DNA from: Treponema sp.
GTDB taxonomy: Bacteria > Spirochaetota > Spirochaetia > Treponematales > Breznakiellaceae
DNA: 25,082 bases
Assembly (NCBI GenBank): GCA_031289935.1
Contig: JAITON010000035.1
Location: 1 to 25,082 of the forward strand
Reading direction: 5' to 3'
The translations under genes and the position numbers were made by a program. Under the pieces are notes generated by a model. The model was not told the origin of the DNA. It saw nothing but the letters and a program-made list of their open reading frames with translations, and ran no database searches. Shown here in pieces: positions 736-16,381 of this stretch. Positions within the stretch are counted from its first letter, which is position 1, and the number at the start of each line of letters is the position of its first letter.

Positions 736-765
736 TTGACAGGATTGACCGGTCTCTGATATGTT
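736..765 (+). promoter_or_regulatory. Sigma70 promoter for the sORF-rpsT operon
   Basis: TTGACA (736-741), 18-bp spacer, extended -10 TG-a-TATGTT (757-765). A-tracts upstream (TTGAAAAAA at 690-698 and 710-718) could act as an UP element. Confidence 0.65.
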
Positions 766-805
766 GGAAAGAAGAATATATGCGTAAGCATTAAGGAGAA
801 GGACT

Positions 806-976
806 ATGGCCCAGGCCAGTAAAAATTCGCGTACCACGAGCGCGACACAGAAGTTTTTTTGCTCCTGCGGGGGTGAAATCAAAATGAAGACGGTTTTTGA
901 GAATGGGAAAATCAAAAATCAAGCCGAATGCGAAAAATGCAAGCGGATCGAACGGCGTCCGTCGGACTTTAAATAA
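806..976 (+). CDS. Small basic zinc-ribbon protein (56 aa, CxC...CxxC)
   Basis: Below the ORF-track cutoff. AAGGAG/AAGGA SD, then ATG 806 to TAA 976: MAQASKNSRTTSATQKFFCSCGGEIKMKTVFENGKIKNQAECEKCKRIERRPSDFK. It fills the gap between the promoter and rpsT. Confidence 0.85.
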   Translation: MAQASKNSRTTSATQKFFCSCGGEIKMKTVFENGKIKNQAECEKCKRIERRPSDFK

Positions 977-988
977 TCGGAGTAATGT

Positions 989-1264
989 ATGGCAGGAAAA
1001 AGCAGTTCCGCTGAAAAGCGACACCGGCAGAGTGAAGAGCGCCGGCTCAGGAATAAGTCGGTCAAGACCGCAGTCAGGACCAGCGTGAAGAAATTCGTCA
1101 GTCTGGCCCAGCAGAAGAAGGCGGCCGAGGCCGAAGCGGCCCTGAAGGATATGGTCAAGAAGATCGATACCGCCGCCGGCAAAGGGATCCTCAAGAAGAA
1201 CGCTGCGGCCCGGAAAAAGTCCCGAATGCAGCGGCTTTTCAACTCCCTAAAAGCCGCCCAGTAA
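989..1264 (+). CDS. rpsT: 30S ribosomal protein S20
   Basis: SAEKRHRQSEERRLRNKSVKTAVRTSVKKF and KGILKKNAAARKKSR motifs; 91 aa, basic; GGAG SD. Confidence 0.97.
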   Translation: MAGKSSSAEKRHRQSEERRLRNKSVKTAVRTSVKKFVSLAQQKKAAEAEAALKDMVKKIDTAAGKGILKKNAAARKKSRMQRLFNSLKAAQ

Positions 1265-1299: not shown

Positions 1300-1632
1300 A
1301 TGGCGGCGCATAAGCTTACCAAGGCTGATATTATCGACTCCGTATATCAAAAGACCGGGCTTGACCGTCAGGACGTTCGTGCTGTTATCGACCTTTTCTG
1401 CGGTGAGGTTAAAGGCGCCATGGTCCGGCAGGAGAGTGTGGAGCTCCGGGGCTTCGGTACTTTCGAGATACGGGTCCGCAAGGGCCGCCTTAAGGCCCGG
1501 AACCCCCGGACCGGCGAGAGTGTGTCGGTAAGTTCCCACGGTATCGCTGCTTTTAGACCTGGCCGGGAATTGAAACGTTCGGTCTGGAACTTGAAGGGTT
1601 CCGGGGAGTCTCCCAGCGAGGCCGAACCATGA
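1300..1632 (+). CDS. hup: HU/IHF-family DNA-binding protein
   Basis: KLTKADII N-terminus and the VELRGFGTFEIRVRKGR..ARNPRTGE signature. Confidence 0.95.
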   Translation: MAAHKLTKADIIDSVYQKTGLDRQDVRAVIDLFCGEVKGAMVRQESVELRGFGTFEIRVRKGRLKARNPRTGESVSVSSHGIAAFRPGRELKRSVWNLKGSGESPSEAEP

Positions 1633-3266
1633 GTATCCCTGGCAGGGGGGCCTGGATCCGGGCCCTCTTGGTCAACTTGGGGCTTTTGGCCTTGGGCAGT
1701 TTTCTTTTTGCCGCCTCTTTTCCCAATCCGCTTTTCGCCGGGGGGGGGGCGTTGTTGGCTTGGCTGGCCTATGTGCCGGTCTTTGTTCTCATCCGCCGGG
1801 TGAGCCTGAGGACTGCGGCCCTCTGGGGGGCTCTTTACGGCTATAGCGCCTACAGTCTTTTCAATTATTGGCTGGGGGCCTTCCATCCTCTGGCAGGCCT
1901 TTTTGTGGGGATCCTTTACCTGCTCTGGTTCACCTTCCTTTTCCCCCTGCTCAAGCTGGCCCTGATCTTTTTCCCGCGCCGGGGTTATCTGCTCCAGTGG
2001 CTCATCTGGCTGGCCTACGAATACCTGCGCACCCTGGGCTTCCTGGGTTATTCCTATGGGATCACGGGCTATTCTCAGTGGAGCTTCCTTCCGGTGATCC
2101 AGATTGCCGATCTCTTTGGGGTCTGGGCGGTCTCGGCCCTGGTAGTATTCTCATCGGCCTATATTGCTCAAGGTTTGACGAGTGTTGAGGTGCGTGGGTT
2201 TTTGGCCGGTATCCGCCGCGAATGGCTGCCGGGGTTGCTCTGGACCTGCGCCCTTATCGCGTCCTTGGTCTACGGCCTGGTTATGACGCGGGACTATGCA
2301 AACCGGGACTATTCCCCGGAGGAGACAGCCCGGATCGCCCTGATACAGAGCAATGAAAGCCCCTGGGCCGACGGGGTGGTGGCATACCGGGAAAAGTTCC
2401 GGGTCCTAAGGCGTCTTTCCGGGGAGGCCCTGGAAGCCGAACCTCAGCCTGACCTGGTGGTTTGGCCCGAAACTGCCTTTGCCCCCCGGATTTACTGGCA
2501 TCTCCACTACCGGGACGATTACGATTCCTACGAGATGGTGGAACTGGTCAAGGAATTGTCGGCCTATATGGAGGTCCAAGAGGTTCCCTTTCTCATCGGC
2601 AATGATGACGGACGGAAAGAGGTCAACGCGGCGGGCCAGTGGGAACGGGTGGACTATAACGCGGCCATTTTTTTTACCCCGGGCAAGGAGCCGGAGATAT
2701 ACCGGAAGATGCATCTGGTGCCTTTTACGGAACATTTCCCCTACAAAGATCGCTTTCCCGGCTTCTATCAGTATCTCCTGGCAGCGAATACCCATCAGTG
2801 GACGGCCGGGAAGGAGGCCCTGATCTTCGAACAGGGGAGGCTGCGCTTTGCCACACCGATTTGTTTTGAGGATACCTTTGGGGACCTTCCCCGGGAATTT
2901 GTCCTGGGGGGAGCGAACTTCCTGGCGAACATATCCAACGATGCCTGGTCCGGGACGCTCTCCTGCCAGATGCAGCACCTGGGCATGGCGGTGTTTCGGG
3001 CCGTGGAGAACCGTCGTTCCCTGGTACGGGCTACCGCCACGGGCCAGACCTGCGGCATCGGCCCCGATGGGAGGATTATCGCCATGGCTGAGCCCTTTAC
3101 CGAGACGGTCCTGGCCCTGGACATTCCCTTGTTGGAGGAGCAGAGTCTCTATACTCGGCTGGGCGATATTTTGGGACAAATTTTCGTCATTCTGGCCCTT
3201 ATCATCTTGTTTAGCGGCGCGGCTTGGCGTATAATAAAGAGTATTAAGGAGAGAAGAACAGCGTGA
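1629..3266 (+). CDS. lnt: Apolipoprotein N-acyltransferase
   Basis: N-terminal TM helices plus a nitrilase-fold triad: WPETA (E), YRKMHLVPFTE (K), ICFED (C); also NDAW and RAVENRRSLVRATATG. ATGA overlap with hup. Confidence 0.96.
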   Translation: MSIPGRGAWIRALLVNLGLLALGSFLFAASFPNPLFAGGGALLAWLAYVPVFVLIRRVSLRTAALWGALYGYSAYSLFNYWLGAFHPLAGLFVGILYLLWFTFLFPLLKLALIFFPRRGYLLQWLIWLAYEYLRTLGFLGYSYGITGYSQWSFLPVIQIADLFGVWAVSALVVFSSAYIAQGLTSVEVRGFLAGIRREWLPGLLWTCALIASLVYGLVMTRDYANRDYSPEETARIALIQSNESPWADGVVAYREKFRVLRRLSGEALEAEPQPDLVVWPETAFAPRIYWHLHYRDDYDSYEMVELVKELSAYMEVQEVPFLIGNDDGRKEVNAAGQWERVDYNAAIFFTPGKEPEIYRKMHLVPFTEHFPYKDRFPGFYQYLLAANTHQWTAGKEALIFEQGRLRFATPICFEDTFGDLPREFVLGGANFLANISNDAWSGTLSCQMQHLGMAVFRAVENRRSLVRATATGQTCGIGPDGRIIAMAEPFTETVLALDIPLLEEQSLYTRLGDILGQIFVILALIILFSGAAWRIIKSIKERRTA

Positions 3267-3964
3267 GTTCCCGAAAAAAAATACTCATCGTTGATGATGA
3301 GTCTGCTAATCTTGATTTTTTTGATGTCATGCTTTCCAAACTGGGTTTCAGCGTTGAGCGGGCGGAGAACGGGTTTACGGCCTTGGAAAAGGTGAAGTGG
3401 TTTTTTCCGGACCTAATTCTTTTGGACAATATTATGCCCAAGATGTCCGGCTGGGAGCTTACCAGGATTCTGAAGGAAGATATCAAGCTTCGGGAGATCC
3501 CTATCATCATGCTTTCGGGGCTCGCGGACGTGAAGGACAAGGTCGAGGGCTTTGAGCTGGGGATAGACGACTATATTACCAAGCCCTTTAATTTTTCCGA
3601 GGTTTTGGCCCGGATCCGGGCGGTGTTGCGAAACCGGGAATTTTTCGCCCAGATCGTGGTCCGGGAGACCCGGCTGGGTATGGCCGAGGCCCTGAACACC
3701 GACCTGAAGCAAGGTGTGGCGGAGTTCCACAGGGGTATGGACGAGCTGGACCGCCGTATCGTCGCCCTGGAGAACGGCTCTCTCAAGGGGGATGCCCTCC
3801 TCTCGGGTCTTAAGGACCAGAGCGAGCGGGTGCGGAAATCCGTTGCGGAACTGGATGTTCGAATTGAAAAAACCACCTCTGAGTGGGCGGACCTCAAGAA
3901 AGGCGAGATAGGCATCCAGGCATTGGAAAAGCAGATACGCATGAAAGCGGAGCAAGAGGAATAG
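3263..3964 (+). CDS. Response regulator: OmpR-like receiver domain with a C-terminal coiled coil and no recognisable DNA-binding domain
   Basis: ILIVDDE...DLILLDNIMPKMSG...PIIMLSG...DDYITKPF..EVLARIRAVLR, followed by about 100 aa of heptad-like helix. GTGA overlap with lnt. Confidence 0.9.
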   Translation: MSSRKKILIVDDESANLDFFDVMLSKLGFSVERAENGFTALEKVKWFFPDLILLDNIMPKMSGWELTRILKEDIKLREIPIIMLSGLADVKDKVEGFELGIDDYITKPFNFSEVLARIRAVLRNREFFAQIVVRETRLGMAEALNTDLKQGVAEFHRGMDELDRRIVALENGSLKGDALLSGLKDQSERVRKSVAELDVRIEKTTSEWADLKKGEIGIQALEKQIRMKAEQEE

Positions 3965-5065: not shown

Positions 5066-6781
5066 ATGGCCTTATTAAGGAAAAGCAGAACAGTAAATCC
5101 TGTGGAACCGATGGCAGATTCAGAGGATCTTTTCCCGGCGGAAAACTCGGCCCCAACCGCAGTCCCGGTCGAAGAGGAGGCCGTTGAACGGCCCAAGCTG
5201 GTGGTGCGGGCCAGGACCCGGCGCGAGGATTCCGGGGAGCCGGGGGCCCACCGCGATTCGGGACGGTCCAGGGGACGATCCCGTGGAAGGGAGCCCTACG
5301 GAGCCGCATTCAACGGCCCGGTCCCCCAGTTCGAGGCCGCCGCGCAACCGAGGGATTATGTCGATCCGGCTGCGAATGAGGCTGGCGGCGCTATTGTTTT
5401 TACGGGCGCCAATGCCCCGGGGGAGGGCACACCTATACATTTGCCCTCTATGCCGGACCTCTACGGACGGCCAGAACCCCGGATGGATCAGGATAACGGT
5501 AAACCCCGGCTCACCATCAACGAGTTGATACGCCTGAACATGATCGACCTGCGGGAACTGGCATCCAGTTACAACATTAGCCATGACGATATGGTGGCTC
5601 TGAAAAAGCAGGAGATCGTCTTTTCGGTGCTCAAGGCCCATACGGAGCGGGGCGGGGTCATCTACGCCTACGGTTCCCTGGAAATTCTGCCCGATGGCTA
5701 TGGTTTCCTTAGGAGCCCCCAGAACTCTTACCTGCCGGGACCCGATGATATCTACATCAGCCCCAGTCAAATTAGGCTTTTTGCCCTCAAGACCGGAGAC
5801 ACGGTCTACGGACAGATCCGCAGCCCCAAGGAAGGGGAGCGTTTCTTCGCTATGCTGCGGGTGGAGACCGTGAACTACGACGATCCCACGGTGGCCCAGA
5901 ACCGGATTCCCTTTGACAACCTGACGCCCCTGGAGCCCGACGAGACGCTGGACTTAGAAACCACCCCCGAGGGGGTTAGCGAGCGGATCATCAACCTCTT
6001 CTGCCCTATCGGCAAAGGCCAGCGGGCCCTCATCGTGGCGCCCCCCCGGACGGGTAAAACTATCATGATGCAGAAGATCGCTAATGCCATCACCAGGAAC
6101 CACCCCGGGGTTTACCTCATCGTGCTGCTCATCGACGAGCGGCCCGAGGAGGTTACCGACATGGAACGGACCGTTCGGGCGGAGGTTATTTCCTCGACCT
6201 TTGACGAGCAGGCCAGCCGGCATGTCCAGGTAACGGAAATGGTTCTGGAAAAGGCCAAGCGCTTGGTGGAGCATAAGAAAGATGTGGTGATCCTTCTGGA
6301 CTCCATCACACGTCTTGCCCGGGCCTACAACCAGACCGTACCAGCCTCAGGCAAGATACTGTCCGGCGGTGTTGACAGCAATGCCCTGCACAAGCCCAAG
6401 CGCTTCTTTGGAGCCGCCCGGAACATCGAAGAGGGGGGGAGTCTGACCATCATCAGCACGGCCCTGATCGAGACCGGAAGTCGTATGGACGAGGTTATTT
6501 TCGAGGAATTTAAGGGTACCGGCAACAACGAAATTGACCTGGACCGGCGCATCAGCGACCGCCGGCTCTTTCCGGCCATCAACATCAAGAAATCCGGCAC
6601 CAGGAAGGAGGAACTGCTCCTCTCCGAAAAGGAACTCCAGAAGATTTGGATACTCCGCAAGGTCATCAACCCTATGGACGATATCGAAATCATCGAATTG
6701 CTGGTTGACAAAATGAAGAAAAGCAAGAATAATGAAGCATTCCTGAATTCGATGAATACCGGTTCCGCCGGGATGGATTGA
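5066..6781 (+). CDS. rho: Transcription termination factor Rho with a ~147-aa N-terminal extension
   Basis: [87 protein letters not shown]. Confidence 0.98.
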
Positions 6782-6799: not shown

Positions 6800-7003
6800 A
6801 TGCAAAAGAAGATTCACCCCAAGTACGAGGTAACGAAGATTACCTGCGCCTGCGGGAATGTGATCGAAACCCGCTCGACCGTGAAGGATATCAAAGTGGA
6901 AATTTGCTCCGCCTGCCACCCTTTCTTTACGGGCAAACAGAAGCTGGTGGATACCGCCGGCCGGATTGAGCGCTTTAGAAGAAAGTACAATATCAAGGAT
7001 TAG
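6800..7003 (+). CDS. rpmE: 50S ribosomal protein L31 (zinc-binding, C+ type)
   Basis: MQKKIHPKY...CACG...[26 protein letters not shown]; GGAGG SD. Confidence 0.97.
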
Positions 7004-7097: not shown

Positions 7098-7220
7098 CTG
7101 ACAGCCTCGTATCAGCCGCTCAAACCAATGGTGGGGTGTCACTCAAACCAACGGTGGTGTGTCACTCAAACCAACGGTGGTGCGCGGCATGCAAGCATGC
7201 TTCTCAAACCAACGGTGGTG
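7098..7220. repeat. Array of 18-bp modules, with a 23-bp period in part
   Basis: CTGACAGCCTCGTATCAG (7098-7115), then CTCAAACCAA(T/C)GGTGG(G/T)G at 7119, 7142, 7165 and 7203. Spacers are tgtca, tgtca, then 20 nt containing the palindrome AAGCATGCTT. Confidence 0.92.
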
Positions 7221-7242
7221 CGTCCGGTGGGCCGGGGCCGCG

Positions 7243-8664
7243 TCAGCGCCTGTAAAGCTGGTCGTGCGCGGCGAGCCGGGTACGGATTTCTGCGGCCAGA
7301 TAGAAGGAGCCCGTGCCCAGTACCGGGAGCCCCCGCTGCCGGCCCGCTTCCAGAGCCGTGTCAATGGCCCTTCCGGTGCCGGGAATCAGGCTCAGTTCCG
7401 GTTTGGCGCTCCCCGGCGGCAGCCGGTCCAGGGCGGCCTGGAAGAGCCGGCAAGTTTCCTCGGGGAAGCTCGTCTTAAAGCTCCCCGGCTTCGTGATGAT
7501 AATCCGGGAAAAGCGGGGGCAGAGTATCTCCGCCATGCCGCCAGAGTCCTTCCCCGCCGCGCAGCCGAAAAGGAGGATCCCCCCTTCCCCGTAGAGGCGG
7601 CTAAAGGTATCCAGAGAAAGGGCCGCGCTCCGGGGTGTGTGGGCCCCGTCGATGATAACCGGGGGATCTTCCCGGACCCGCTCGAACCGCGCCGGGAGCC
7701 TGGAGTTCCACAGCCCCTCCCGGATAGCGCGCTCCTCTATACCGGGGAAGGCGGCTCTTACTGCCAGGATCGCGGCGGCGGCGTTCATCCCCTGAATCTC
7801 CCCGGGAACAGGCAGCGAAAGGGCCCGGAGCGGGGGGGCCAGGCCCGAGGGAGGATCGGGCTTAAAAGAGAGGGAGCAGCGGCTGCCCTCCTTATCAACC
7901 GAGATATCTTCTATAACAACCCTCTCGGGGAGGTAGAGGAGGGGCGCGCCCTTGGCTCTGGCCCCGGCGCGGAACACCTCCAGGGCCTCGGGCTCCTGCT
8001 CCATAAGGATCAGGGGCCTCCCCGGTTTGATGATCCCGGCCTTTTCCTCCGCGATGGCGGCGAGGGTATCCCCCAGGTACTCGGTATGCTCAAGCTCAAT
8101 CGACGTGATGACCGAGACCCGGGGATCGAGAATATTGGTGGCATCGAGCCGGCCTCCCATGCCGGTCTCCACCGCCAGGGCGCCCGTACGGGCAAGACGG
8201 CAGCAGATGAAGAAGTAGAGGGTCAAAAGCTCGAAGAACGAGGGGGCTTCGCCGCCGGGATGCCGGGGGTCGAAGAGGGGATGGCGGCCCCCTTCGAGCG
8301 CTTGTACGTATCCCTGGAGCTCCCCGCCTGCGGCCTCGTAGAGGGCTTCCTCAAAAAAAGAGTTTCCCCGGGTAATCCGCTCCCGGTACTCCGTAACATG
8401 AGGGGAGGTATAGCGGCCCGGCTCAAGCCCGGCGGCTTCCAGGATGCCGGCAATCATGGCCGTTACCGAGCCCTTGCCCTTGGAACCTGCCACGTGAATG
8501 GCCGGGGCGCAACGTTCCGGCCGGCAAGCCAATTCGGCGAGGATTTCCATACGGTCCAGGCGGAAGCTTCGGGAACTCTGGCCCCGCTCCAGGCTGATAA
8601 AGCCCGCAAGCCAGCGGAAGACCTCGTTGGAGCTTCTAAAGGGAAGGTGTTTCACGTCAATCAT
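7243..8664 (-). CDS. folC: Bifunctional folylpolyglutamate synthase / dihydrofolate synthase
   Basis: IHVAGSKGKGSV, GRYTSPHV..YRERI, FFELLT, VETGMGGRLDATN, ITSIELEHTEYLG.TL..IA.EKAGIIKP, IIDGAHT. Confidence 0.95.
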   Translation of the reverse strand: MIDVKHLPFRSSNEVFRWLAGFISLERGQSSRSFRLDRMEILAELACRPERCAPAIHVAGSKGKGSVTAMIAGILEAAGLEPGRYTSPHVTEYRERITRGNSFFEEALYEAAGGELQGYVQALEGGRHPLFDPRHPGGEAPSFFELLTLYFFICCRLARTGALAVETGMGGRLDATNILDPRVSVITSIELEHTEYLGDTLAAIAEEKAGIIKPGRPLILMEQEPEALEVFRAGARAKGAPLLYLPERVVIEDISVDKEGSRCSLSFKPDPPSGLAPPLRALSLPVPGEIQGMNAAAAILAVRAAFPGIEERAIREGLWNSRLPARFERVREDPPVIIDGAHTPRSAALSLDTFSRLYGEGGILLFGCAAGKDSGGMAEILCPRFSRIIITKPGSFKTSFPEETCRLFQAALDRLPPGSAKPELSLIPGTGRAIDTALEAGRQRGLPVLGTGSFYLAAEIRTRLAAHDQLYRR

Positions 8665-8693
8665 CCAGCGCTAGATTCCCCCCTTTCCAGGGC

Positions 8694-8722
8694 TTGTGTC
8701 AATGGGTTTGCGGCGTTACCAT
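8694..8722 (+). promoter_or_regulatory. Possible sigma70 promoter of murC
   Basis: TTGTGT (8694-8699), 17 bp, TACCAT (8717-8722), ending 6 nt before the murC ATG. A perfect TTGACA on the minus strand (8702-8697) faces folC but has no good -10. Confidence 0.35.
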
Positions 8723-8728
8723 GGGAGT

Positions 8729-10186
8729 ATGAAACCGGTAATCTACATGGTGGGTATCAAGGGGACGGGCATGTGCGCTCTGGCGGAACTGCTCCATAAT
8801 ACGGGGGCCGAGGTCCGGGGCTCGGACCGGCCCGAAACCTTTTATACCGACCTCATCCTCCAGGACCTGGGCATCCCCTACTATGAGTCCTTCGAGGCCG
8901 CCCATATTGATGAGCGGGCCGAACAGGTGATTTATTCGGCGGCCTATTCCCCCGGCGCTAACCCGGAGCTCCTGGAGGCCCGGCGCCGGGGCATCCCGCT
9001 GATCAAGTACAGCGATGCCCTGGGGGAATACTCGGCCCGTTTCGACTCGTCGGGCATAGCCGGGGTCCACGGCAAGACCACCACCACGGCCCTTACGGGG
9101 ATGCTGCTCCGGGGGGCAGGTCTTCCCGCCCAGGTTTTGGCGGGCAGCGCCGTGGGCAGTTTTAGTGGCTCTGAGGGCGGGCGCTCTACCCTCTGTCTGG
9201 GGGACAAGTACTTTGTGGCCGAAACCTGCGAGTACCGGCGGCACTTCCTGGCCTTCCATCCCCGGCGCATCGTTCTGACCAGCGTGGAAAGCGATCATCA
9301 GGATTACTACCCCGGTTATGCTGATATTCAGGCCGCCTTCCTGGAATATATCGCCAAACTGCCCCAGGGCGGGGAGCTTATCTACTGTGCCGATGACGCG
9401 GGGGCCCGGGAAACTGCGGCCCGGGCCCTAGGGGATAGACCGGATATCCGGGCCGTCCCCTATGGATTCAGCGCCGGAGGGCCCTTCCAGATTACCGGTT
9501 TCCGGGCCGGGGCCGGGGGGCTGGTCTTCGGTCTGGCAGGGCTGGACGGGGAATGGCATCTTAGGATCCCCGGCCGGCACAGCGCTCTGAACGCCGCCGC
9601 CGCCCTGGCCCTGACCGATTCCCTGGTGCGGGCGGAATTCGGCCTCTGGTCCACGGAGCGGCTCGAAAAGGCCCGGACCGCTCTGGGGGAGTTTCGGGGG
9701 AGCAAACGCCGCTCGGAGATCCTTGGCGAATCAGGGGGCGTTCTCTTTATGGACGATTACGGCCACCATCCCACGGCCATCAGGACCACCCTGGCAGGGC
9801 TTCGGGACTTCTATCCCGGCCGCAGGATCGTTCTTTCCTTTATGTCCCACACCTACTCCCGCACTGCCGCCTTGCTGGACGAGTTTGCCGCTTCCTTTGA
9901 GAGCGCCGATGTGGTCTTCTTTCACAAGATTTACGCCTCCGCCAGGGAGGGTTATACCGGGGGCGTTACGGGCCGGACCCTTTACGAACGGGCCAGAGCA
10001 CAAACCCGGCCTGAAAGGCAGGAACATATCCACTATACCGAAGAATGGGCCGATGCCGCCGGGCCTCTGGAGCAGATCTTACGGGCCGGGGACCTCTTTA
10101 TCACCCTGGGGGCCGGGGACAACTGGAAGCTGGGTAAGATGCTGATGGATCGTTACCACCCCCGTCCAGAGGAAGCCCTCCTATGA
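8729..10186 (+). CDS. murC: UDP-N-acetylmuramate--L-alanine ligase
   Basis: YMVGIKGTGMCALA, VRGSD, IYSAAY, IAGVHGKTTTT, FVAETCEY, IPGRHSALNA, DDYGHHPTAI, HTYSRT, LGAGD. Start moved to ATG 8729 (MKPVIY). Confidence 0.95.
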   Translation: MKPVIYMVGIKGTGMCALAELLHNTGAEVRGSDRPETFYTDLILQDLGIPYYESFEAAHIDERAEQVIYSAAYSPGANPELLEARRRGIPLIKYSDALGEYSARFDSSGIAGVHGKTTTTALTGMLLRGAGLPAQVLAGSAVGSFSGSEGGRSTLCLGDKYFVAETCEYRRHFLAFHPRRIVLTSVESDHQDYYPGYADIQAAFLEYIAKLPQGGELIYCADDAGARETAARALGDRPDIRAVPYGFSAGGPFQITGFRAGAGGLVFGLAGLDGEWHLRIPGRHSALNAAAALALTDSLVRAEFGLWSTERLEKARTALGEFRGSKRRSEILGESGGVLFMDDYGHHPTAIRTTLAGLRDFYPGRRIVLSFMSHTYSRTAALLDEFAASFESADVVFFHKIYASAREGYTGGVTGRTLYERARAQTRPERQEHIHYTEEWADAAGPLEQILRAGDLFITLGAGDNWKLGKMLMDRYHPRPEEALL

Positions 10187-11061
10187 AAAGTATGACCGGC
10201 TATGCCGTTGCGGCCCGGCAGGACGAGGGACTCTCCCTTTCGGTGGAACTCCGGGGCTATAACAGCCGCTTCCTCGACATTGTCATGAATCTGCCGCCCT
10301 TCCTGGCTCCCTTTGAGGGGCGTATTCGGGAATATCTGGCGGGCCGCTTCCGCCGGGGGAAGATTGAGCTCAGCCTGAAGTGTAAGGAGTACTACGCAGG
10401 TTTCCCGGTAAGGCTGAACCGGGAGGCGGTCCGGGCCTACGCCGGTGCCATCGGCCTTTTGGCCGCCGAACTGGGGTCCAGCGAGAAGCCCCCGCTCCCG
10501 GTCATCCTGGGCCTGGAAGGGGTGCTGGAGATCGGGCAAGAGCAGACCGGGGAGCAGCGATGGGACCGCATCGAACCGGCCCTTTGGGCGGTCCTTGGGG
10601 AAGCGGCGGACCAGTTTGAGACCGAGCGGCTCCGGGAGGGGAGCCATACCGAGGCGGCGATCCTGGGCCTGCTTGCCGGGATGGAAGACCAGGCCCGGTG
10701 TATTGAGAAACGGGCCCCTGAGATGGAAGCCGTCTTTCAGGAGAACCTCCGCCGCCGTTTCGCCGAGCTTTTGGGGGAGGCCGTAGACGAGGGCCGTGTC
10801 CTCCAGGAAACCGCCGTTCTCCTGGTGAAGTACAGCATCGCCGAAGAGATTTTCCGGCTCAAGGCCCACTTCCAGGAATTCCGGATCGAGACTGAGCGGG
10901 CTCCCAGCCCTGGTAGAAAGCTCGACTTCCTCTGTCAGGAGATCAACCGGGAAATCAATACTATCGGTTCCAAGGTCCCGGACCTGGAAGTAAGCCGCGC
11001 CGTGGTAGCCATGAAGGACGCTCTGGAGGATATCCGGGAGCAGCTCCGGAATGTGGAGTGA
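10183..11061 (+). CDS. yicC: YicC/YloC-family endoribonuclease
   Basis: MKSMTGYA...SVELRGYNSRFLDI...RRGKIEL...R.REG...K.SIAEEI.RL..H...GRKLDFLCQEINREINTIGSK...EDIREQLRNVE. Confidence 0.95.
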   Translation: MKSMTGYAVAARQDEGLSLSVELRGYNSRFLDIVMNLPPFLAPFEGRIREYLAGRFRRGKIELSLKCKEYYAGFPVRLNREAVRAYAGAIGLLAAELGSSEKPPLPVILGLEGVLEIGQEQTGEQRWDRIEPALWAVLGEAADQFETERLREGSHTEAAILGLLAGMEDQARCIEKRAPEMEAVFQENLRRRFAELLGEAVDEGRVLQETAVLLVKYSIAEEIFRLKAHFQEFRIETERAPSPGRKLDFLCQEINREINTIGSKVPDLEVSRAVVAMKDALEDIREQLRNVE

Positions 11062-11179: not shown

Positions 11180-13864
11180 GTGCGTAAATTGTTTAAATAT
11201 CCTTGGCTTATCGTGGGGCTCATCGCCCTCATCACGGTATTTTTTGCCCTCCAGCTTGGCCGGGCCCAGTTGGACAACAACAATTTCCGCTTTGTGCCTG
11301 CCGATGATCCTGCCCTGCTGACCTCACGGTATATTGATGAGACCTTTGGTAGTTCTCTGTTTATCCTGGTGGGGCTGGAACGGAAGTACGGCACGGTGTT
11401 TGACGGGCCCTTCCTGAAACGCATGGGGGAATACGTTGACCTAATTGGTGATATCCCGGTGGTGGGCACTGTAACTTCCCTAATCAACACCGAATATATC
11501 ACTTCCCGGGATGGTGCGGTGGTGGTAGAAAAACTGCTGGATGAAAATTTCTCCGGGACCTCCGCCGAGATCGCCGAGCTTAAACGGCGAATTTTTTCCT
11601 GGGATATGTACGAACGGGCCCTGGTCTCCGATGATTTTACCGCCACACAAATACTGGTACCCCTGAATATCAGCATGGAAAAGGCCGGAAGTCCCGAAAT
11701 AACCCGCGAGTTTGAGAAAATCCGGGACACGGCCCAGGAAATGTTTGCAGGGCTGGCCAATGTCCATGTGGCGGGTATGCCAGTGATCAGCGCCACAGTG
11801 AACGAGGCCACGGGGGCGGACCTTATTTTATTGGTGCCCCTGGTTGTTATTGTGGTCCTGGGGGTACTCTTCTTCTCCTTCCGCCGCTTTACCGCCGTGG
11901 CGCTTCCCCTGATAACCGTCGTGGTGGCCACAGTCTGGTCCATGGGCGCCATGCCGCTTTTCGGCGTAAAGCTTTCTATTATATCTACGGTGCTGCCGGT
12001 GATTCTGGTAGCCGTAGGGAGCGCCTACGGTATTCATGTGGTAACCCACTATGTTTCCGAGCGGGGCCATGGCCTCATGACCGCCGAAGCCCACAGGGAA
12101 CTGGTCTTTAGCCTGGTACGGAAGATAGGCCGGCCCGTGTTCCTGGCTGCCCTGACCACCTTTGTAGGTTTCTTTTCCTGTTGCTTTACCACGGTGCTCC
12201 CCATTCGGGAATTCGGCATCTTCTCCAGTTTCGGCGTCATTGCATCCTTTGCCGTGGCCCTGACCCTGATTCCAGCGCTGCTTCTGATCCGTGGGCCAAA
12301 ACCCCTGAGCGGCCAATCGCGCAGTAATGCTGCTCAGAACCTTCCCCCGGCGGAGAGCCGGTTGAGCAATGTTACGGTGCATATCTTTACCGCCCTAGTT
12401 GAGCGGAAGATGCTGGTCCTCTTTATCGTAGCCATGGTAGCGGCCCTTTCGATATACGGCATGACCAAGGTTATCATCGACAATGTCATGGTGGAATACT
12501 TCAAAGAGGACACGGCTGTTTATAGATCCGATGTCTTTATTCGGGAGCAATTCGGCGGTTCCAAACTCGTGAATGTGGTGATGGAGGCCGAGACACCGGA
12601 AATCCTCCTCCACCCCGATTCTCTGGCTGCTATGGACGGGCTGGGGACTTATCTTACCGCCAATGTTCCCGAGACCGGCAAGGTGATGGGATTTACCTCC
12701 CTGATTAAGCGGATAAACCAGGTTTTTAACGCCGATGAAAGCCCCGAGGGTATTCCTCCCCTGGCGCCGTCCACTGGAGCGCTGGAAGGAGCTGTTTTTG
12801 AGGAGTTCCCAGAGGATACCGTCTCCGAGGCCGGTGATTTTTCCTGGGACTTTGGATTTGACGAATGGGGTTCGGACGATAGCTTTGCTTCAAGTGATAG
12901 TTTTACTATTGATGAATACGATTATTACGGCATTGACGATGCGGAAGCGCCGGTCATGACAGCGGCGGAGCTTATGGACCTCCTGGACCGGGCTGCCTCG
13001 GAAGGGAGCTTCCTAAACGGCTCAGAGCTGGTCAGGGAGCTCAAGCGGCTCACGAACTACGAAGGGGCGGCCTATTACGAAATCCCTAGTGACCCGGCAA
13101 AGTACGGCCGGGAAAGCCCCGAGGAACTTCAGCGGTTGATCTCCAATTATATGGTCCTCCTTTCGGGCAATATCAGCGATTATGCCAACGATCCGATAGC
13201 CCCCACGGCCATTAAGACTACGGTCCAGCTCCGTACCGTGGGAGAATACGACAGCGATCGTGCCCTCAAGGAAATAGACGAATATATTGCCGCCAACTTC
13301 CCCGGCAATGTCAAAACCACCGTGGGCGGTGCTGCCCTGGTAGAGTTTTCCCTGAACGCTCTGGTGGTCCAGTCCCAGCTTATCTCCCTGGTTATATCGA
13401 TTGTTATGGTGTTCATCATCGTGGCTCTATCGAATAGATCCCTGGCAGCGGGCCTCATCGGGATTGTACCCCTGACGATTTCAATACTTATCAACTTTGG
13501 CGTCATGGGTTTCTTGGGTATCAAGCTCAACCTGGGAACCGCCATGGTCGCCAGTGTTTCTATAGGCATTGGTATTGACTACACGATCCATTATCTGGAA
13601 GCCTTCCTGCAGGAGTACCGGGCCTCGGGCGGGAAGGGGGACTACCTCCGCAGAACCTTTGCCACCTCGGGCAAGGCCATCATCATCAATGCCCTTTCGG
13701 TGGGTGCGGGTTTTGCGGTGCTCCGCTTTTCTCAGTTTAACATGCTCGCCGATCTGGGCCTCCTGATTGCCCTGACCATGGGAACCAGCGCCCTCTTGAG
13801 CCTCACCGTAATTCCGGTGCTCCTCACGGTATGCAAGCCTAAATTTATCGCCAGGGGAGTGTAG
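11180..13864 (+). CDS. MMPL / RND-superfamily inner-membrane transporter
   Basis: Two repeats of (1 TM, large periplasmic domain, 5 TM); DETFG..LFILVGL, VAGMPVI, IREFGIFSSFG, EYFKEDT..YRSD.FIREQFGGS, IGIGIDYTIHY, TSGKAIIINA. GTG start with a purine-rich SD. Confidence 0.93.
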   Translation: MRKLFKYPWLIVGLIALITVFFALQLGRAQLDNNNFRFVPADDPALLTSRYIDETFGSSLFILVGLERKYGTVFDGPFLKRMGEYVDLIGDIPVVGTVTSLINTEYITSRDGAVVVEKLLDENFSGTSAEIAELKRRIFSWDMYERALVSDDFTATQILVPLNISMEKAGSPEITREFEKIRDTAQEMFAGLANVHVAGMPVISATVNEATGADLILLVPLVVIVVLGVLFFSFRRFTAVALPLITVVVATVWSMGAMPLFGVKLSIISTVLPVILVAVGSAYGIHVVTHYVSERGHGLMTAEAHRELVFSLVRKIGRPVFLAALTTFVGFFSCCFTTVLPIREFGIFSSFGVIASFAVALTLIPALLLIRGPKPLSGQSRSNAAQNLPPAESRLSNVTVHIFTALVERKMLVLFIVAMVAALSIYGMTKVIIDNVMVEYFKEDTAVYRSDVFIREQFGGSKLVNVVMEAETPEILLHPDSLAAMDGLGTYLTANVPETGKVMGFTSLIKRINQVFNADESPEGIPPLAPSTGALEGAVFEEFPEDTVSEAGDFSWDFGFDEWGSDDSFASSDSFTIDEYDYYGIDDAEAPVMTAAELMDLLDRAASEGSFLNGSELVRELKRLTNYEGAAYYEIPSDPAKYGRESPEELQRLISNYMVLLSGNISDYANDPIAPTAIKTTVQLRTVGEYDSDRALKEIDEYIAANFPGNVKTTVGGAALVEFSLNALVVQSQLISLVISIVMVFIIVALSNRSLAAGLIGIVPLTISILINFGVMGFLGIKLNLGTAMVASVSIGIGIDYTIHYLEAFLQEYRASGGKGDYLRRTFATSGKAIIINALSVGAGFAVLRFSQFNMLADLGLLIALTMGTSALLSLTVIPVLLTVCKPKFIARGV

Positions 13865-13955
13865 CCGTGTTGCGGTCCCCGGCCTTGATCTTTATTCAGA
13901 GGAAGTTCTTCGAAAACTGAAGTTTCCGAATAAGTCTTATGTGAGGAGTAGATGT

Positions 13956-14768
13956 ATGAAAAGAATGGCGTTAGTAAGCCTGCTGTTGGCCTTGCCGGTC
14001 CTGGCTTTTTCCCAAAACGCGGCGGATATTGTGTCCGCCTCCCGAAACCGGATACCTTCGGGGGCCATAAGCACGGTTTCCAAGATGGTAATTACCGATG
14101 CTAATGGCAGAACTACTACCCGGTATATGTACCAGTTTACCAAGGACTTCCCCAACGGGAGCAGGACCGTGGTCGCCTTCCCCGAAAGCAGCAACGGAAG
14201 AAGACTGAACGATAGCAGCATTGCCAATACCCGCTTCCTTACCATCGCAAATTCTGGCGGGGGTACCAGCCAGCGGATATTCCTCCCCGAGACCCGGAAG
14301 GTAACTCCCATTTCCAGCTCCGACGGGTCCAAACCCTTCCTGGGTACCGACTTCTCGAGCGATGATATGTCCTCCCTTAACCGTGCCGCGAACCTGGATA
14401 CCCACAGCCTGCTTCGGGAGGAACAGTTTTCGGGCCCCTTTACCGGCGGGACCCGGGCCTGTTATGTTATCGAGTCAAAGCCCAAGGATAGTTCCTTCCA
14501 GTATTCCCGGATGGTCCAGTGGATCGATAAGGAGACGCTGATCATCTACCGGATTGAACTCTACGATCAAAAAAACGTCCTTACCAAGCTTGTGGAAATG
14601 GGCAACGTCAAGGAATTCCAGGGGAGGCTCACCCCTACCATGACCAAGGGAACCACCGTGGGTAAAGGGACCAGTACCACGATCGAAATACAAACCATAA
14701 GCTACGATGCCAGTATTCCAGACGGTGTATTTACCGACTACTATCTCCTAAACGGAAGGTCCCAGTAA
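13956..14768 (+). CDS. Periplasmic LolA-like ('outer membrane lipoprotein-sorting') protein
   Basis: SPase I-type signal MKRMALVSLLLALPVLAFS; motifs TRFL, IFLPE.RKV..IS, FLGTDFSSDDM, CYVIESKPK, YSRMVQWIDK, RIELYD. GAGGAG SD 7 nt upstream of ATG 13956. Confidence 0.85.
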   Translation: MKRMALVSLLLALPVLAFSQNAADIVSASRNRIPSGAISTVSKMVITDANGRTTTRYMYQFTKDFPNGSRTVVAFPESSNGRRLNDSSIANTRFLTIANSGGGTSQRIFLPETRKVTPISSSDGSKPFLGTDFSSDDMSSLNRAANLDTHSLLREEQFSGPFTGGTRACYVIESKPKDSSFQYSRMVQWIDKETLIIYRIELYDQKNVLTKLVEMGNVKEFQGRLTPTMTKGTTVGKGTSTTIEIQTISYDASIPDGVFTDYYLLNGRSQ

Positions 14769-16381
14769 TGAAAAAGACCGTAATACTATTGACCCTTATG
14801 CTGGCCGCCCTGGGCCTGGCAGCTCAGGAGGATTTTGATTTCGACTTTGGTTTTGGCGATGAAGGGAGCCAGGACTCGTCCCTTCCCCTGGTTTCCATGA
14901 GTGGGGAAATCTCCACGGGTTTTACCCTCTTTCCCGGCGAATGGGAAAGCTGGGATAGCTTTAAGGCTGTAGAGCTTGGGGATATTGTTTCCGGGGCCCT
15001 TAATTTCAGCCTCTCCGGCCCCTATGCCGACGCCTATATCGGCCTCGGTCTTACGCCCAATTTTGAGGACCCCGCCAAGATCCTTAGTCTGGACGAGGCA
15101 TGGATACGGGCCTTTTTCGGCGGCTTTACCCTTGAGGCCGGGCTCCTTAAGCTTTCCTGGGGCCGGGCCGATGTCCTGGGCCCCCTGGACGTGGTCAATC
15201 CCCTGGATTATTCGGACCTCTCCAGCCTCCAGGATCAGCAGGAGATGAAGCTTTCCCGTCCCATGATCCATGTGTCCTATTGGTTCTCCGGCGATGTGCC
15301 CTTGAGCATTGAGGGGGTCTACCTCCCCTGGTTCCAGGGCGATCTCTACGCCACCGAGGGCCGCTGGGTCGCGCAGCAGTTGACGGATACGACCCAGGCG
15401 ATGCTGGACGCCATAAACGGCGCCCTTACACCTACCCTGGGCCCGGGTTACCTCAGCCTGGCGGATATTTCCGGCATGGGGGGGGGCGTCCAGACCACCG
15501 GCCTGGAATACAGCCAGTGGGGCCTTCGTATGACCACGACCCTGGGGCCCGTGGACCTGGGGCTCCAGTATTACAGCGGTTTCCCCTCCCGGCCCGAAGC
15601 GGTGTTAAATAGATCCGCTATGTCGACTATTGACGCCGACGCCGCTACGCTTGCATCTGCCAGCGTGGCCGCCCAAACCGCCCAAACCACCTATCAGACG
15701 GCCTTGACCGCACTTGGTACAAAGATAGCTAGCGCTCCTAGTGATGCTAGTATTCCGGGACTAGCGGCGGCTGTCGATCTGGCCTATGGGGCCCTTCTAG
15801 CCGCCTCGGCTGCCGCCGAGTCGGCAGCCCTGGCTTTGGAGACCGCCCTGGGGAACGCCTACTCTATCGGTTACAGCCGCTACCATCAGGTCGGCATCGA
15901 CTATGCCCAGTCTATTTGGGGCTTCAATATCCGGGCCGAGTTTGCCGCCAACCTGACGGCAGACCTGGACGGGACCAACGGGGCGGTCTATAACCCATCC
16001 CTGGCCTGGGCCCTGGGCGTTTACCGGGACCTTTTCTGGGGCGTCGATATGCTCCTCCAGGCGAACCAGAGCATCCGGCTTTTTAACGGCCAGGTGGGCA
16101 GCGATCCGGTCTACGATGTGGAGGCCGCCGCCCGGGATCATGCTACTGCCACCCGGATCACCCTGTCGTTCTCCAAAGCCTTTGATGATCTAACCCTCCG
16201 GTTCACCACGCTCTGGGGCATCGAGGACATGGATTTTCTCATCATACCCAGCCTGAGCTGGGCCCAGGGCGGCCTGGGTTTAAGTCTTACAGGGGGCGTC
16301 TTTCTGGGCGACTCCAAAGGTGAGCTGGGACAATTCGCCAAGCACAGCTACCTCAAGCTGGGCATGAGCTACTCATTCTAG
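14768..16381 (+). CDS. Predicted outer-membrane beta-barrel protein (DUF1302-like) of the MMPL module
   Basis: Signal peptide; many amphipathic strands (LDEAWIRAFFGGFTLEAGLLKLSWGRAD, YHQVGIDYA, FNIRAEFAANL); C-terminal beta-signal-like YLKLGMSYSF; start overlaps the upstream stop (TAATG). Confidence 0.75.
   Translation: MKKTVILLTLMLAALGLAAQEDFDFDFGFGDEGSQDSSLPLVSMSGEISTGFTLFPGEWESWDSFKAVELGDIVSGALNFSLSGPYADAYIGLGLTPNFEDPAKILSLDEAWIRAFFGGFTLEAGLLKLSWGRADVLGPLDVVNPLDYSDLSSLQDQQEMKLSRPMIHVSYWFSGDVPLSIEGVYLPWFQGDLYATEGRWVAQQLTDTTQAMLDAINGALTPTLGPGYLSLADISGMGGGVQTTGLEYSQWGLRMTTTLGPVDLGLQYYSGFPSRPEAVLNRSAMSTIDADAATLASASVAAQTAQTTYQTALTALGTKIASAPSDASIPGLAAAVDLAYGALLAASAAAESAALALETALGNAYSIGYSRYHQVGIDYAQSIWGFNIRAEFAANLTADLDGTNGAVYNPSLAWALGVYRDLFWGVDMLLQANQSIRLFNGQVGSDPVYDVEAAARDHATATRITLSFSKAFDDLTLRFTTLWGIEDMDFLIIPSLSWAQGGLGLSLTGGVFLGDSKGELGQFAKHSYLKLGMSYSF

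Follow-up and report, generated by a model that had tools for sequence, protein, structure and literature searches.

The open reading frame at positions 806–976 of the window, by which we mean the whole 25,082-nucleotide stretch of Treponema sp. DNA analysed here, is a real and conserved gene under strong purifying selection, and its 56-residue product is, judged from its sequence, a one-to-one ortholog of the ribosomal protein bL38 (BB0162) of Borrelia burgdorferi. Sequence match, orthology, predicted fold and conserved RNA contacts led us to file the reading frame as the ortholog of spirochaete bL38. Taken as a whole, our proposal is that this Treponema-type bL38 is located on the 50S subunit, holds zinc through its cysteines and is encoded by the first gene of a bL38–rpsT–HU unit (Table 1), and we regard it as very likely to be correct.

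The reading frame extends on the plus strand from an ATG to a TAA stop codon at 974–976. Its product contains 9 Lys and 4 Arg (13 basic residues) versus 5 Glu and 1 Asp (6 acidic residues), and cysteines are found at positions 19, 21, 42 and 45. At almost every orthologous locus, AAGGAG or GGAGG precedes the ATG, bL38 being nearly always equipped with its own Shine-Dalgarno sequence. The sequence-only reading of this DNA had pointed to the four cysteines, the charge balance of 13 to 6, the good Shine-Dalgarno sequence and the 12-nt gap to rpsT, all of which were confirmed. Its description of the gene as unannotated is correct for the 60-aa track of open reading frames, but public MAG records do carry it as a hypothetical protein. 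Note that the bL31 gene of the window, with 67 codons for amino acids, is itself near the 60-aa cut-off that missed bL38.

Table 1. Coordinates of bL38, its signals and motifs, and other genes of the window
Feature	Position	Strand	Remarks
Candidate sigma-70-like promoter, TTGACA / 18-nt spacer / TG-TATGTT	736..765	+	10/12 consensus matches; TTGACA begins at 736, TATGTT ends at 765
Shine-Dalgarno sequence AAGGAGA of the bL38 gene	794..800	+	5 nt before the ATG
CDS, 56-aa ribosomal protein bL38 (spirochaete type, four-Cys form, assigned by homology)	806..976 (incl. stop)	+	Conservation, match to PDB 8FMW chain Ai, predicted fold, selection
First putative zinc knuckle, codons Cys19-Ser20-Cys21	860..868	+	Cys conservation in alignment A1
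Second putative zinc knuckle, codons Cys42-Glu-Lys-Cys45	929..940	+	Cys conservation in alignment A1
Basic motif, codons Arg50-Arg51-Pro52	953..961	+	Equivalent of rRNA-contacting R49-K50 in Borrelia bL38
Shine-Dalgarno sequence GGAG of rpsT	979..982	+	Within the 12-nt bL38–rpsT gap
rpsT (ribosomal protein bS20), second gene of the unit	989..1264	+	PF01649 E 5.8e-26; TIGR00029 E 7.7e-23
HU/IHF-family DNA-binding protein gene, third gene	1300..1632	+	PF00216 E 4e-25; synteny
Apolipoprotein N-acyltransferase	1629–3266		Start overlaps the HU gene stop by 4 nt
Response regulator	3263–3964		Rest of window
rho	5066–6781		Rest of window
bL31 gene, 67 aa, four-Cys	6800–7003	+	Directly after rho
Mur ligase	8696–10186		Rest of window
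YicC	10183–11061		Rest of window
MMPL transporter	11180–13864		Rest of window
LolA-like protein	13941–14768		Rest of window

Similarity to the bL38 protein of the Borrelia ribosome

The bL38 protein of B. burgdorferi was found as an unassigned density in a 2.9-Å map of the 70S ribosome and was identified as the product of bb0162 with the help of cryo-EM and LC-MS/MS. As a stable component it stays bound to the free 50S subunit; it contacts the proteins uL6 and uL14 as well as H95 (sarcin-ricin loop) and H97 of the 23S rRNA, and it reaches the rRNA with the residues K34, K36, R49, K50 and R52 (PMC10618245). A phmmer search of the window protein against all PDB chains gave one match, chain Ai of 8FMW with its counterpart in 8FN2, entered as '50S ribosomal protein bL38', with an E-value of 8e-8 and 35 bits over residues 16–55 for 8fmw_Ai. 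When a profile of 54 homologs was compared with the PDB, the bL38 chain was found at E 3.2e-16 (62 bits), next to a marginal bL28 match at E 5. Borrelia-like genomes contain a single bL38 match at about 161 kb, the product of which agrees with chain 8fmw_Ai at E 8.8e-25 and in 41 of the 45 aligned residues. No model of Pfam-A or NCBIfam (local copies, June 2026) matched the reading frame at E ≤ 1.

The alignment-based AF2 model of the window protein is of medium confidence (pLDDT 79, pTM 0.49) and features two strands (residues 24–32 and 35–42), a bridge (48–49) and a helix (52–55), which fits the description of Borrelia bL38. Foldseek, run with this model, returned 8fmw_Ai as the top match (TM 0.79 on the target, rmsd 2.6 Å, 43% identity, E 7.6e-3), and VIA-align, which is independent of Foldseek and was applied to 48,161 chains, placed 8fn2_i first with a Z-score of 5.6 over 46/46 residues, the next row having a Z-score of 3.6. 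The E-value of the former and the Z-score of the latter are modest, which is to be expected of a target with 46 residues. Classical zinc ribbons (Rpb9, GRF and L37Ae) were found among the lower-ranking fold matches. According to the model, the window protein shares the predicted fold of Borrelia bL38, namely a β1–β2 hairpin, a short β3 strand and a C-terminal helix.

Four of the five rRNA-contacting residues of Borrelia bL38 are conserved in the window protein (K35, K37, R50 and R51), while the fifth position (R52 in Borrelia) is occupied by Ser53 here and by Lys or Arg in 21 of the 54 family members. In the alignment of all 54 rows (A1), Lys or Arg is present at the position of K35 in 51/54, of K37 in 38/54, of R50 in 54/54 and of R51 in 52/54 rows; R50 and P52 are invariant. 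The basic spine formed by K35, K37, R50 and R51 would touch H95 (sarcin-ricin loop) and H97 of the 23S rRNA, and by homology the protein would be a stable component of the 50S subunit, sitting beside uL6 and uL14. By analogy to the Borrelia ribosome, we infer that bL38 also resides on the 50S subunit in the present organism.

The N-terminal motif S-K-N-[AS]-R (residues 5–9, positions 818–832) ranks with the most strongly conserved stretches of the family, being kept in 37–48 of the 54 rows. In the map of the Borrelia ribosome the first nine residues, which cover this motif, are disordered. The Borrelia structure would thus account for only part of the function of bL38.

Borrelia bL38 (BB0162, UniProt O51184; 8FMW chain Ai, 8FN2 chain i) and the window protein are 43% identical over the ordered core, both have a length of 55–56 residues, and they have the predicted hairpin, third strand and short helix, the basic spine and an RxP motif in common. 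Both are encoded by single-copy genes and are restricted to the same class, but the Borrelia gene, unlike that of the window, is not adjacent to rpsT. The bL38 papers mention neither Treponema orthologs nor cysteines nor zinc, and no other paper linking bL38 with Treponema was found; searches for literature on BB0162 and on the Treponema ribosome and zinc likewise yielded no more than the bL38 papers.

Cysteine knuckles and the putative zinc site

In the lineage of the window, the knuckles C19-x-C21 and C42-xx-C45 would hold one structural Zn2+, and one zinc held by the four cysteines is the most likely reading of their pattern in the family. Of 45 full-length representatives at 50% identity, 34 have CCCC at the four ligand positions and four have HCCC; in alignment A1, Cys is found at position 19 in 46/54 rows (His in four), at position 21 in 50/54, at position 42 in 54/54 and at position 45 in 49/54. 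One genus has CPxC in place of CxC.

The corresponding residues are S/W/C/(S,T,G) in Borrelia-like genomes (family f8) and in the families f10, f11 and f13; in Borrelia itself, Ser18, Trp20 and Ser44 correspond to Cys19, Cys21 and Cys45 of the window protein. The six Cys-less sequences constitute one split of the maximum-likelihood tree with a support of 100/99 and a long branch. These sequences are in agreement with a single loss of the cysteine site that was followed by rapid change in the Cys-less clade. The only solved structure of the family, that of Borrelia, hence represents a derived, Cys-less state and is an exception in the family.

Five complete genomes were compared for their ribosomal proteins (L055–L074), of which G140, G210 and G314 have a Cys-less and G305 and G124 a four-Cys bL38. 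The latter two encode a four-Cys bL31 and a three-Cys bL33. In the former three, bL31 is of a long, Cys-free type and bL33 lacks the zinc-ligand cysteines, with one or two stray cysteines left. The picture is mixed for bL32, which is devoid of cysteines in G210 only, and uS14 has four cysteines in all five genomes. If the zinc site of bL38 is real, its cysteines would be expected to be lost together with those of bL31 and bL33, as is seen here; the genomes are few and related, and the co-loss is therefore a lead and not a statistic.

It is possible, though unlikely, that the four cysteines do not bind zinc at all and instead form disulfides, bind another metal or have a structural role only. 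Borrelia-type proteins fold and bind to the ribosome without these cysteines, which would fit such an assumption. Against it stand the arrangement of the two knuckles on either side of the β-hairpin, the zinc-ribbon-like fold, the replacement of the first ligand by His in the four representatives mentioned above and the loss of the bL31 and bL33 cysteines in the same clade. To our knowledge, cytoplasmic ribosomal proteins are not normally disulfide-bonded. Zinc, which we prefer as the ligand of the four-Cys form, is clearly not needed for the fold or for ribosome binding as such, to judge from the Borrelia homolog, which lacks three of the four cysteines.

A number of zinc-ribbon ribosomal proteins, namely bL31, bL32, bL33, bL36, uS14 and bS18, exist in Cys-containing (C+) and Cys-less (C−) forms, reportedly described by Makarova et al. 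in 2001. Like these, bL38 has two cysteine knuckles around a β-hairpin, and its cysteines have been lost in the orthologs of a sister clade. The bL31 protein of the window has the CxCG...CxxC layout in common with bL38; homology of bL38 to the bL31 zinc ribbon is unsupported (hhalign probability 3%). Co-resident four-Cys and Cys-less bL38 paralogs were not detected in any sampled genome, so that there is no sign of a backup paralog for zinc starvation; the only pair of copies, in G323, consists of two four-Cys proteins. These are encoded at L049 (G323:C12:58595-58762) and L050 (G323:C4:29925-30089), one of the two adjoining rpsT–HU and the other being located elsewhere and on a long branch.

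We consider it rather probable that spirochaete bL38 was a zinc-binding ribbon in the ancestor, that this form still predominates, and that the Borrelia protein is a degenerate, zinc-free derivative. The latter would have arisen once, in a clade that also removed the cysteines of bL31 and bL33, which would amount to a lineage-wide 'zinc-sparing' remodelling of the 50S subunit.

Distribution and genomic context of bL38

A word-indexed search of 5.8 billion proteins retrieved 240 homologs, most of them exactly 56 residues long and 77–95% identical. The named homologs came from Treponema, Treponemataceae, Termitinemataceae and Rectinema MAGs and were labelled 'hypothetical protein'; for the most divergent metagenomic members, 'Spirochaetales bacterium' was the only name obtained by cluster look-up. 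A six-frame search of relatives detected a single-copy ortholog in 36 of 41. In the five family members without a match, rpsT was located at a contig end (two) or the rpsT locus was missing (three), and these absences are thus attributed to assembly gaps. In a phylum-wide sample, 64 of 301 genomes gave matches with the protein as the query and a similar number did so with the 54-sequence profile. Every sampled family of the window's class has bL38, as do 62 of the 63 sampled class genomes and each of those in which the locus is assembled; counted over the 63 class genomes that gave a match, 62 have a single one and one has two copies.

No bL38 was found in the other classes of the phylum by protein and profile searches of the 301-genome sample. 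Weak profile matches were rejected in G328, where the hit is an 82-aa zinc-ribbon protein with CPCGG...CxxC and without the RRP motif, and in G057, where no sensible reading frame is present. A search for related loci returned L054, a chance match inside a 275-aa response-regulator-like reading frame.

Across the order, bL38 is 71–95% identical, versus 47–82% for S20 and 41–71% for the HU homolog at the same loci. Compared with the window sequence, pN amounts to 0.03–0.25 (non-synonymous differences of 3–25%) while synonymous sites are saturated; for the two pairs that are unsaturated, dN/dS is about 0.01–0.02. The conservation that the sequence-only reading had proposed to look for is present in orthologs across the class, in the cysteines of most of the family and in the dN/dS of these two pairs. 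Its assumption of a spirochaete-specific ribosomal protein is also supported, in that the protein is a homolog of bL38 of the 50S subunit, has the same predicted fold and was found only in the class of the window. It needs correction with regard to S20, as bL38 is a large-subunit protein and not an S20 partner. Linkage to rpsT, also put forward in that reading, is common but not universal.

The order bL38–rpsT–HU is kept in the family of the window, and several further families of the class show it as well. Some genera have bL38 next to rpsT but in divergent orientation, and the two genes are unlinked in T. pallidum-like (1.14 Mb) and Borrelia-like genomes and in those of genus g27. Their spacing ranges from 12 to about 1000 nt. 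In G210, which belongs to another family and has the Cys-less type, bL38 (3189174-3189335, minus strand) is located about 68 nt upstream of rpmG, the bL33 gene (3188977-3189105, minus strand; locus L058 = G210:C1:3187477-3190605). Linkage of bL38 to genes of ribosomal proteins is thus frequent, not fixed.

In the window, an AT-rich spacer of 300 nt separates bL38 from the divergent upstream gene, so that bL38 comes first on its strand. The promoter-like site inside this divergent intergenic region is a consensus match only, of which one is also expected from shuffles. About 30 of 53 related loci nevertheless have a TTGAC(A) 56–84 nt before the bL38 ATG. We assume that bL38 would have a promoter of its own, would head the bL38–rpsT–HU unit and would be co-transcribed with rpsT. 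An Rfam scan of the whole window at gathering thresholds gave no match, that is, no known leader or riboswitch. In several genomes of the window's family, a short GC stem-loop (e.g. gccgg-loop-ccggc) abuts the Shine-Dalgarno sequence of bL38, about 10–35 nt upstream of the ATG (L004, L007, L008, L010, L011 and L013). Its loop and some of its stem bases vary among the genomes, and TTGACA is absent within 90 nt at these loci. The stem-loop may be a regulatory or stabilising hairpin of the 5'-UTR; in the region upstream of the window's own bL38 it is absent. The rest of the window consists of ordinary housekeeping genes (Table 1), and its long reading frames at 7159–8799 and 14768–16381 had no Pfam match.

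A protein with zinc-ribbon features could in principle be a free-standing nucleic-acid-binding or regulatory protein that is related to Borrelia bL38 without being a constituent of the ribosome in Treponema-like bacteria. Some homologs are labelled 'transcription elongation factor Elf1' or 'SIR2 family' in databases, the generic zinc-ribbon label PF27425 (AF0631_N, Pfam 38.1) is attached as a precomputed label to roughly 40% of the listed homologs and to 12% of one Atlas cluster, and the fold matches below the top one are zinc ribbons of RNA polymerase. Going by its name, PF27425 describes a generic zinc ribbon at the N-terminus of an archaeal protein and not a family of bL38. The Elf1 and SIR2 names are automatic labels for short cysteine motifs. 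We therefore regard a free-standing protein as quite improbable, as bL38 is a single-copy, one-to-one ortholog of a ribosome-bound protein, retains the rRNA-contacting residues, is conserved at the level of a ribosomal protein and has a gene linked to rpsT in many lineages, with rpmG taking that place in one. That the reading frame is an upstream leader, the translation and not the product of which regulates rpsT, would suit its position 12 nt before rpsT and behind the only promoter-like site, but this idea was rejected as hardly conceivable, since it is contradicted by the conservation of the amino-acid sequence beyond the mere frame (71–95%, with synonymous sites saturated), by the persistence of the gene in many genomes where it is unlinked to or divergent from rpsT, and by the variable spacing between the two. 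Residence on the 50S subunit remains the preferred reading of the product.

Another ribosomal protein goes by the same name. The bL38 of Flavobacterium johnsoniae and other Bacteroidia (DUF4295, PF14128) occupies roughly the same place of the 50S subunit beside uL6 (PMC7797042, PMC11851116). It is likewise small and basic, features a β-hairpin and is encoded in an operon of ribosomal proteins, and the position of bL38 just upstream of rpmG in G210, the only genome in which the two adjoin, recalls the bL28–bL33–bL38 operon of Bacteroidia. The order in the window, bL38–rpsT–HU, is different. The Bacteroidia protein has no cysteines, its helix lies against the opposite face, and the protein is shifted by 10–14 Å. 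PF14128 matched neither the window protein nor the six-frame translated genome at E ≤ 1, and hhalign of A1 against an alignment restricted to Flavobacteriaceae (A2, DUF4295, Neff 1.2) gave a probability of 0.1% with four columns aligned. With a low-diversity alignment on one side and no PF14128 match, homology to the Bacteroidia bL38 is unsupported by these searches; the homology of the bL38 proteins is also questioned in the literature, where a link through the bL38 of Rhodothermus is argued for (PMC11851116). Since homology is not established, the role of Flavobacterium bL38 in 50S assembly cannot simply be transferred. By analogy, one may hypothesise that spirochaete bL38 takes part in the incorporation of uL6 or in the assembly of the 50S subunit.

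Implications for spirochaete ribosomes

The protein had been put forward as a candidate lineage-specific ribosome-associated protein. The bL38 family has been known since 2023; hence the window protein is no new kind of protein, and it leaves the present understanding of the ribosome as it is. Modestly new is that most of the family, as far as can be judged from its sequences, bears the CxC...CxxC signature of a zinc ribbon and that the Cys-less clade of Borrelia is the exception.

All sampled Treponema-like, Sphaerochaeta-like and Borrelia-like genomes contain the gene, which is still called 'hypothetical' or falls below size cut-offs; with the name bL38, an annotation gap is closed for a whole class that includes the treponemes of syphilis and periodontitis. 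The four-Cys form, and its loss in the Borrelia clade in parallel with the cysteines of bL31 and bL33, make the loss of a putative zinc site from a lineage-specific ribosomal protein concrete and open to testing. If this is true, bL38 would join the ribosomal proteins with C+ and C− forms, and the ribosomes of Treponema, including the T. pallidum-like organisms, would carry one structural zinc more than has been assumed.
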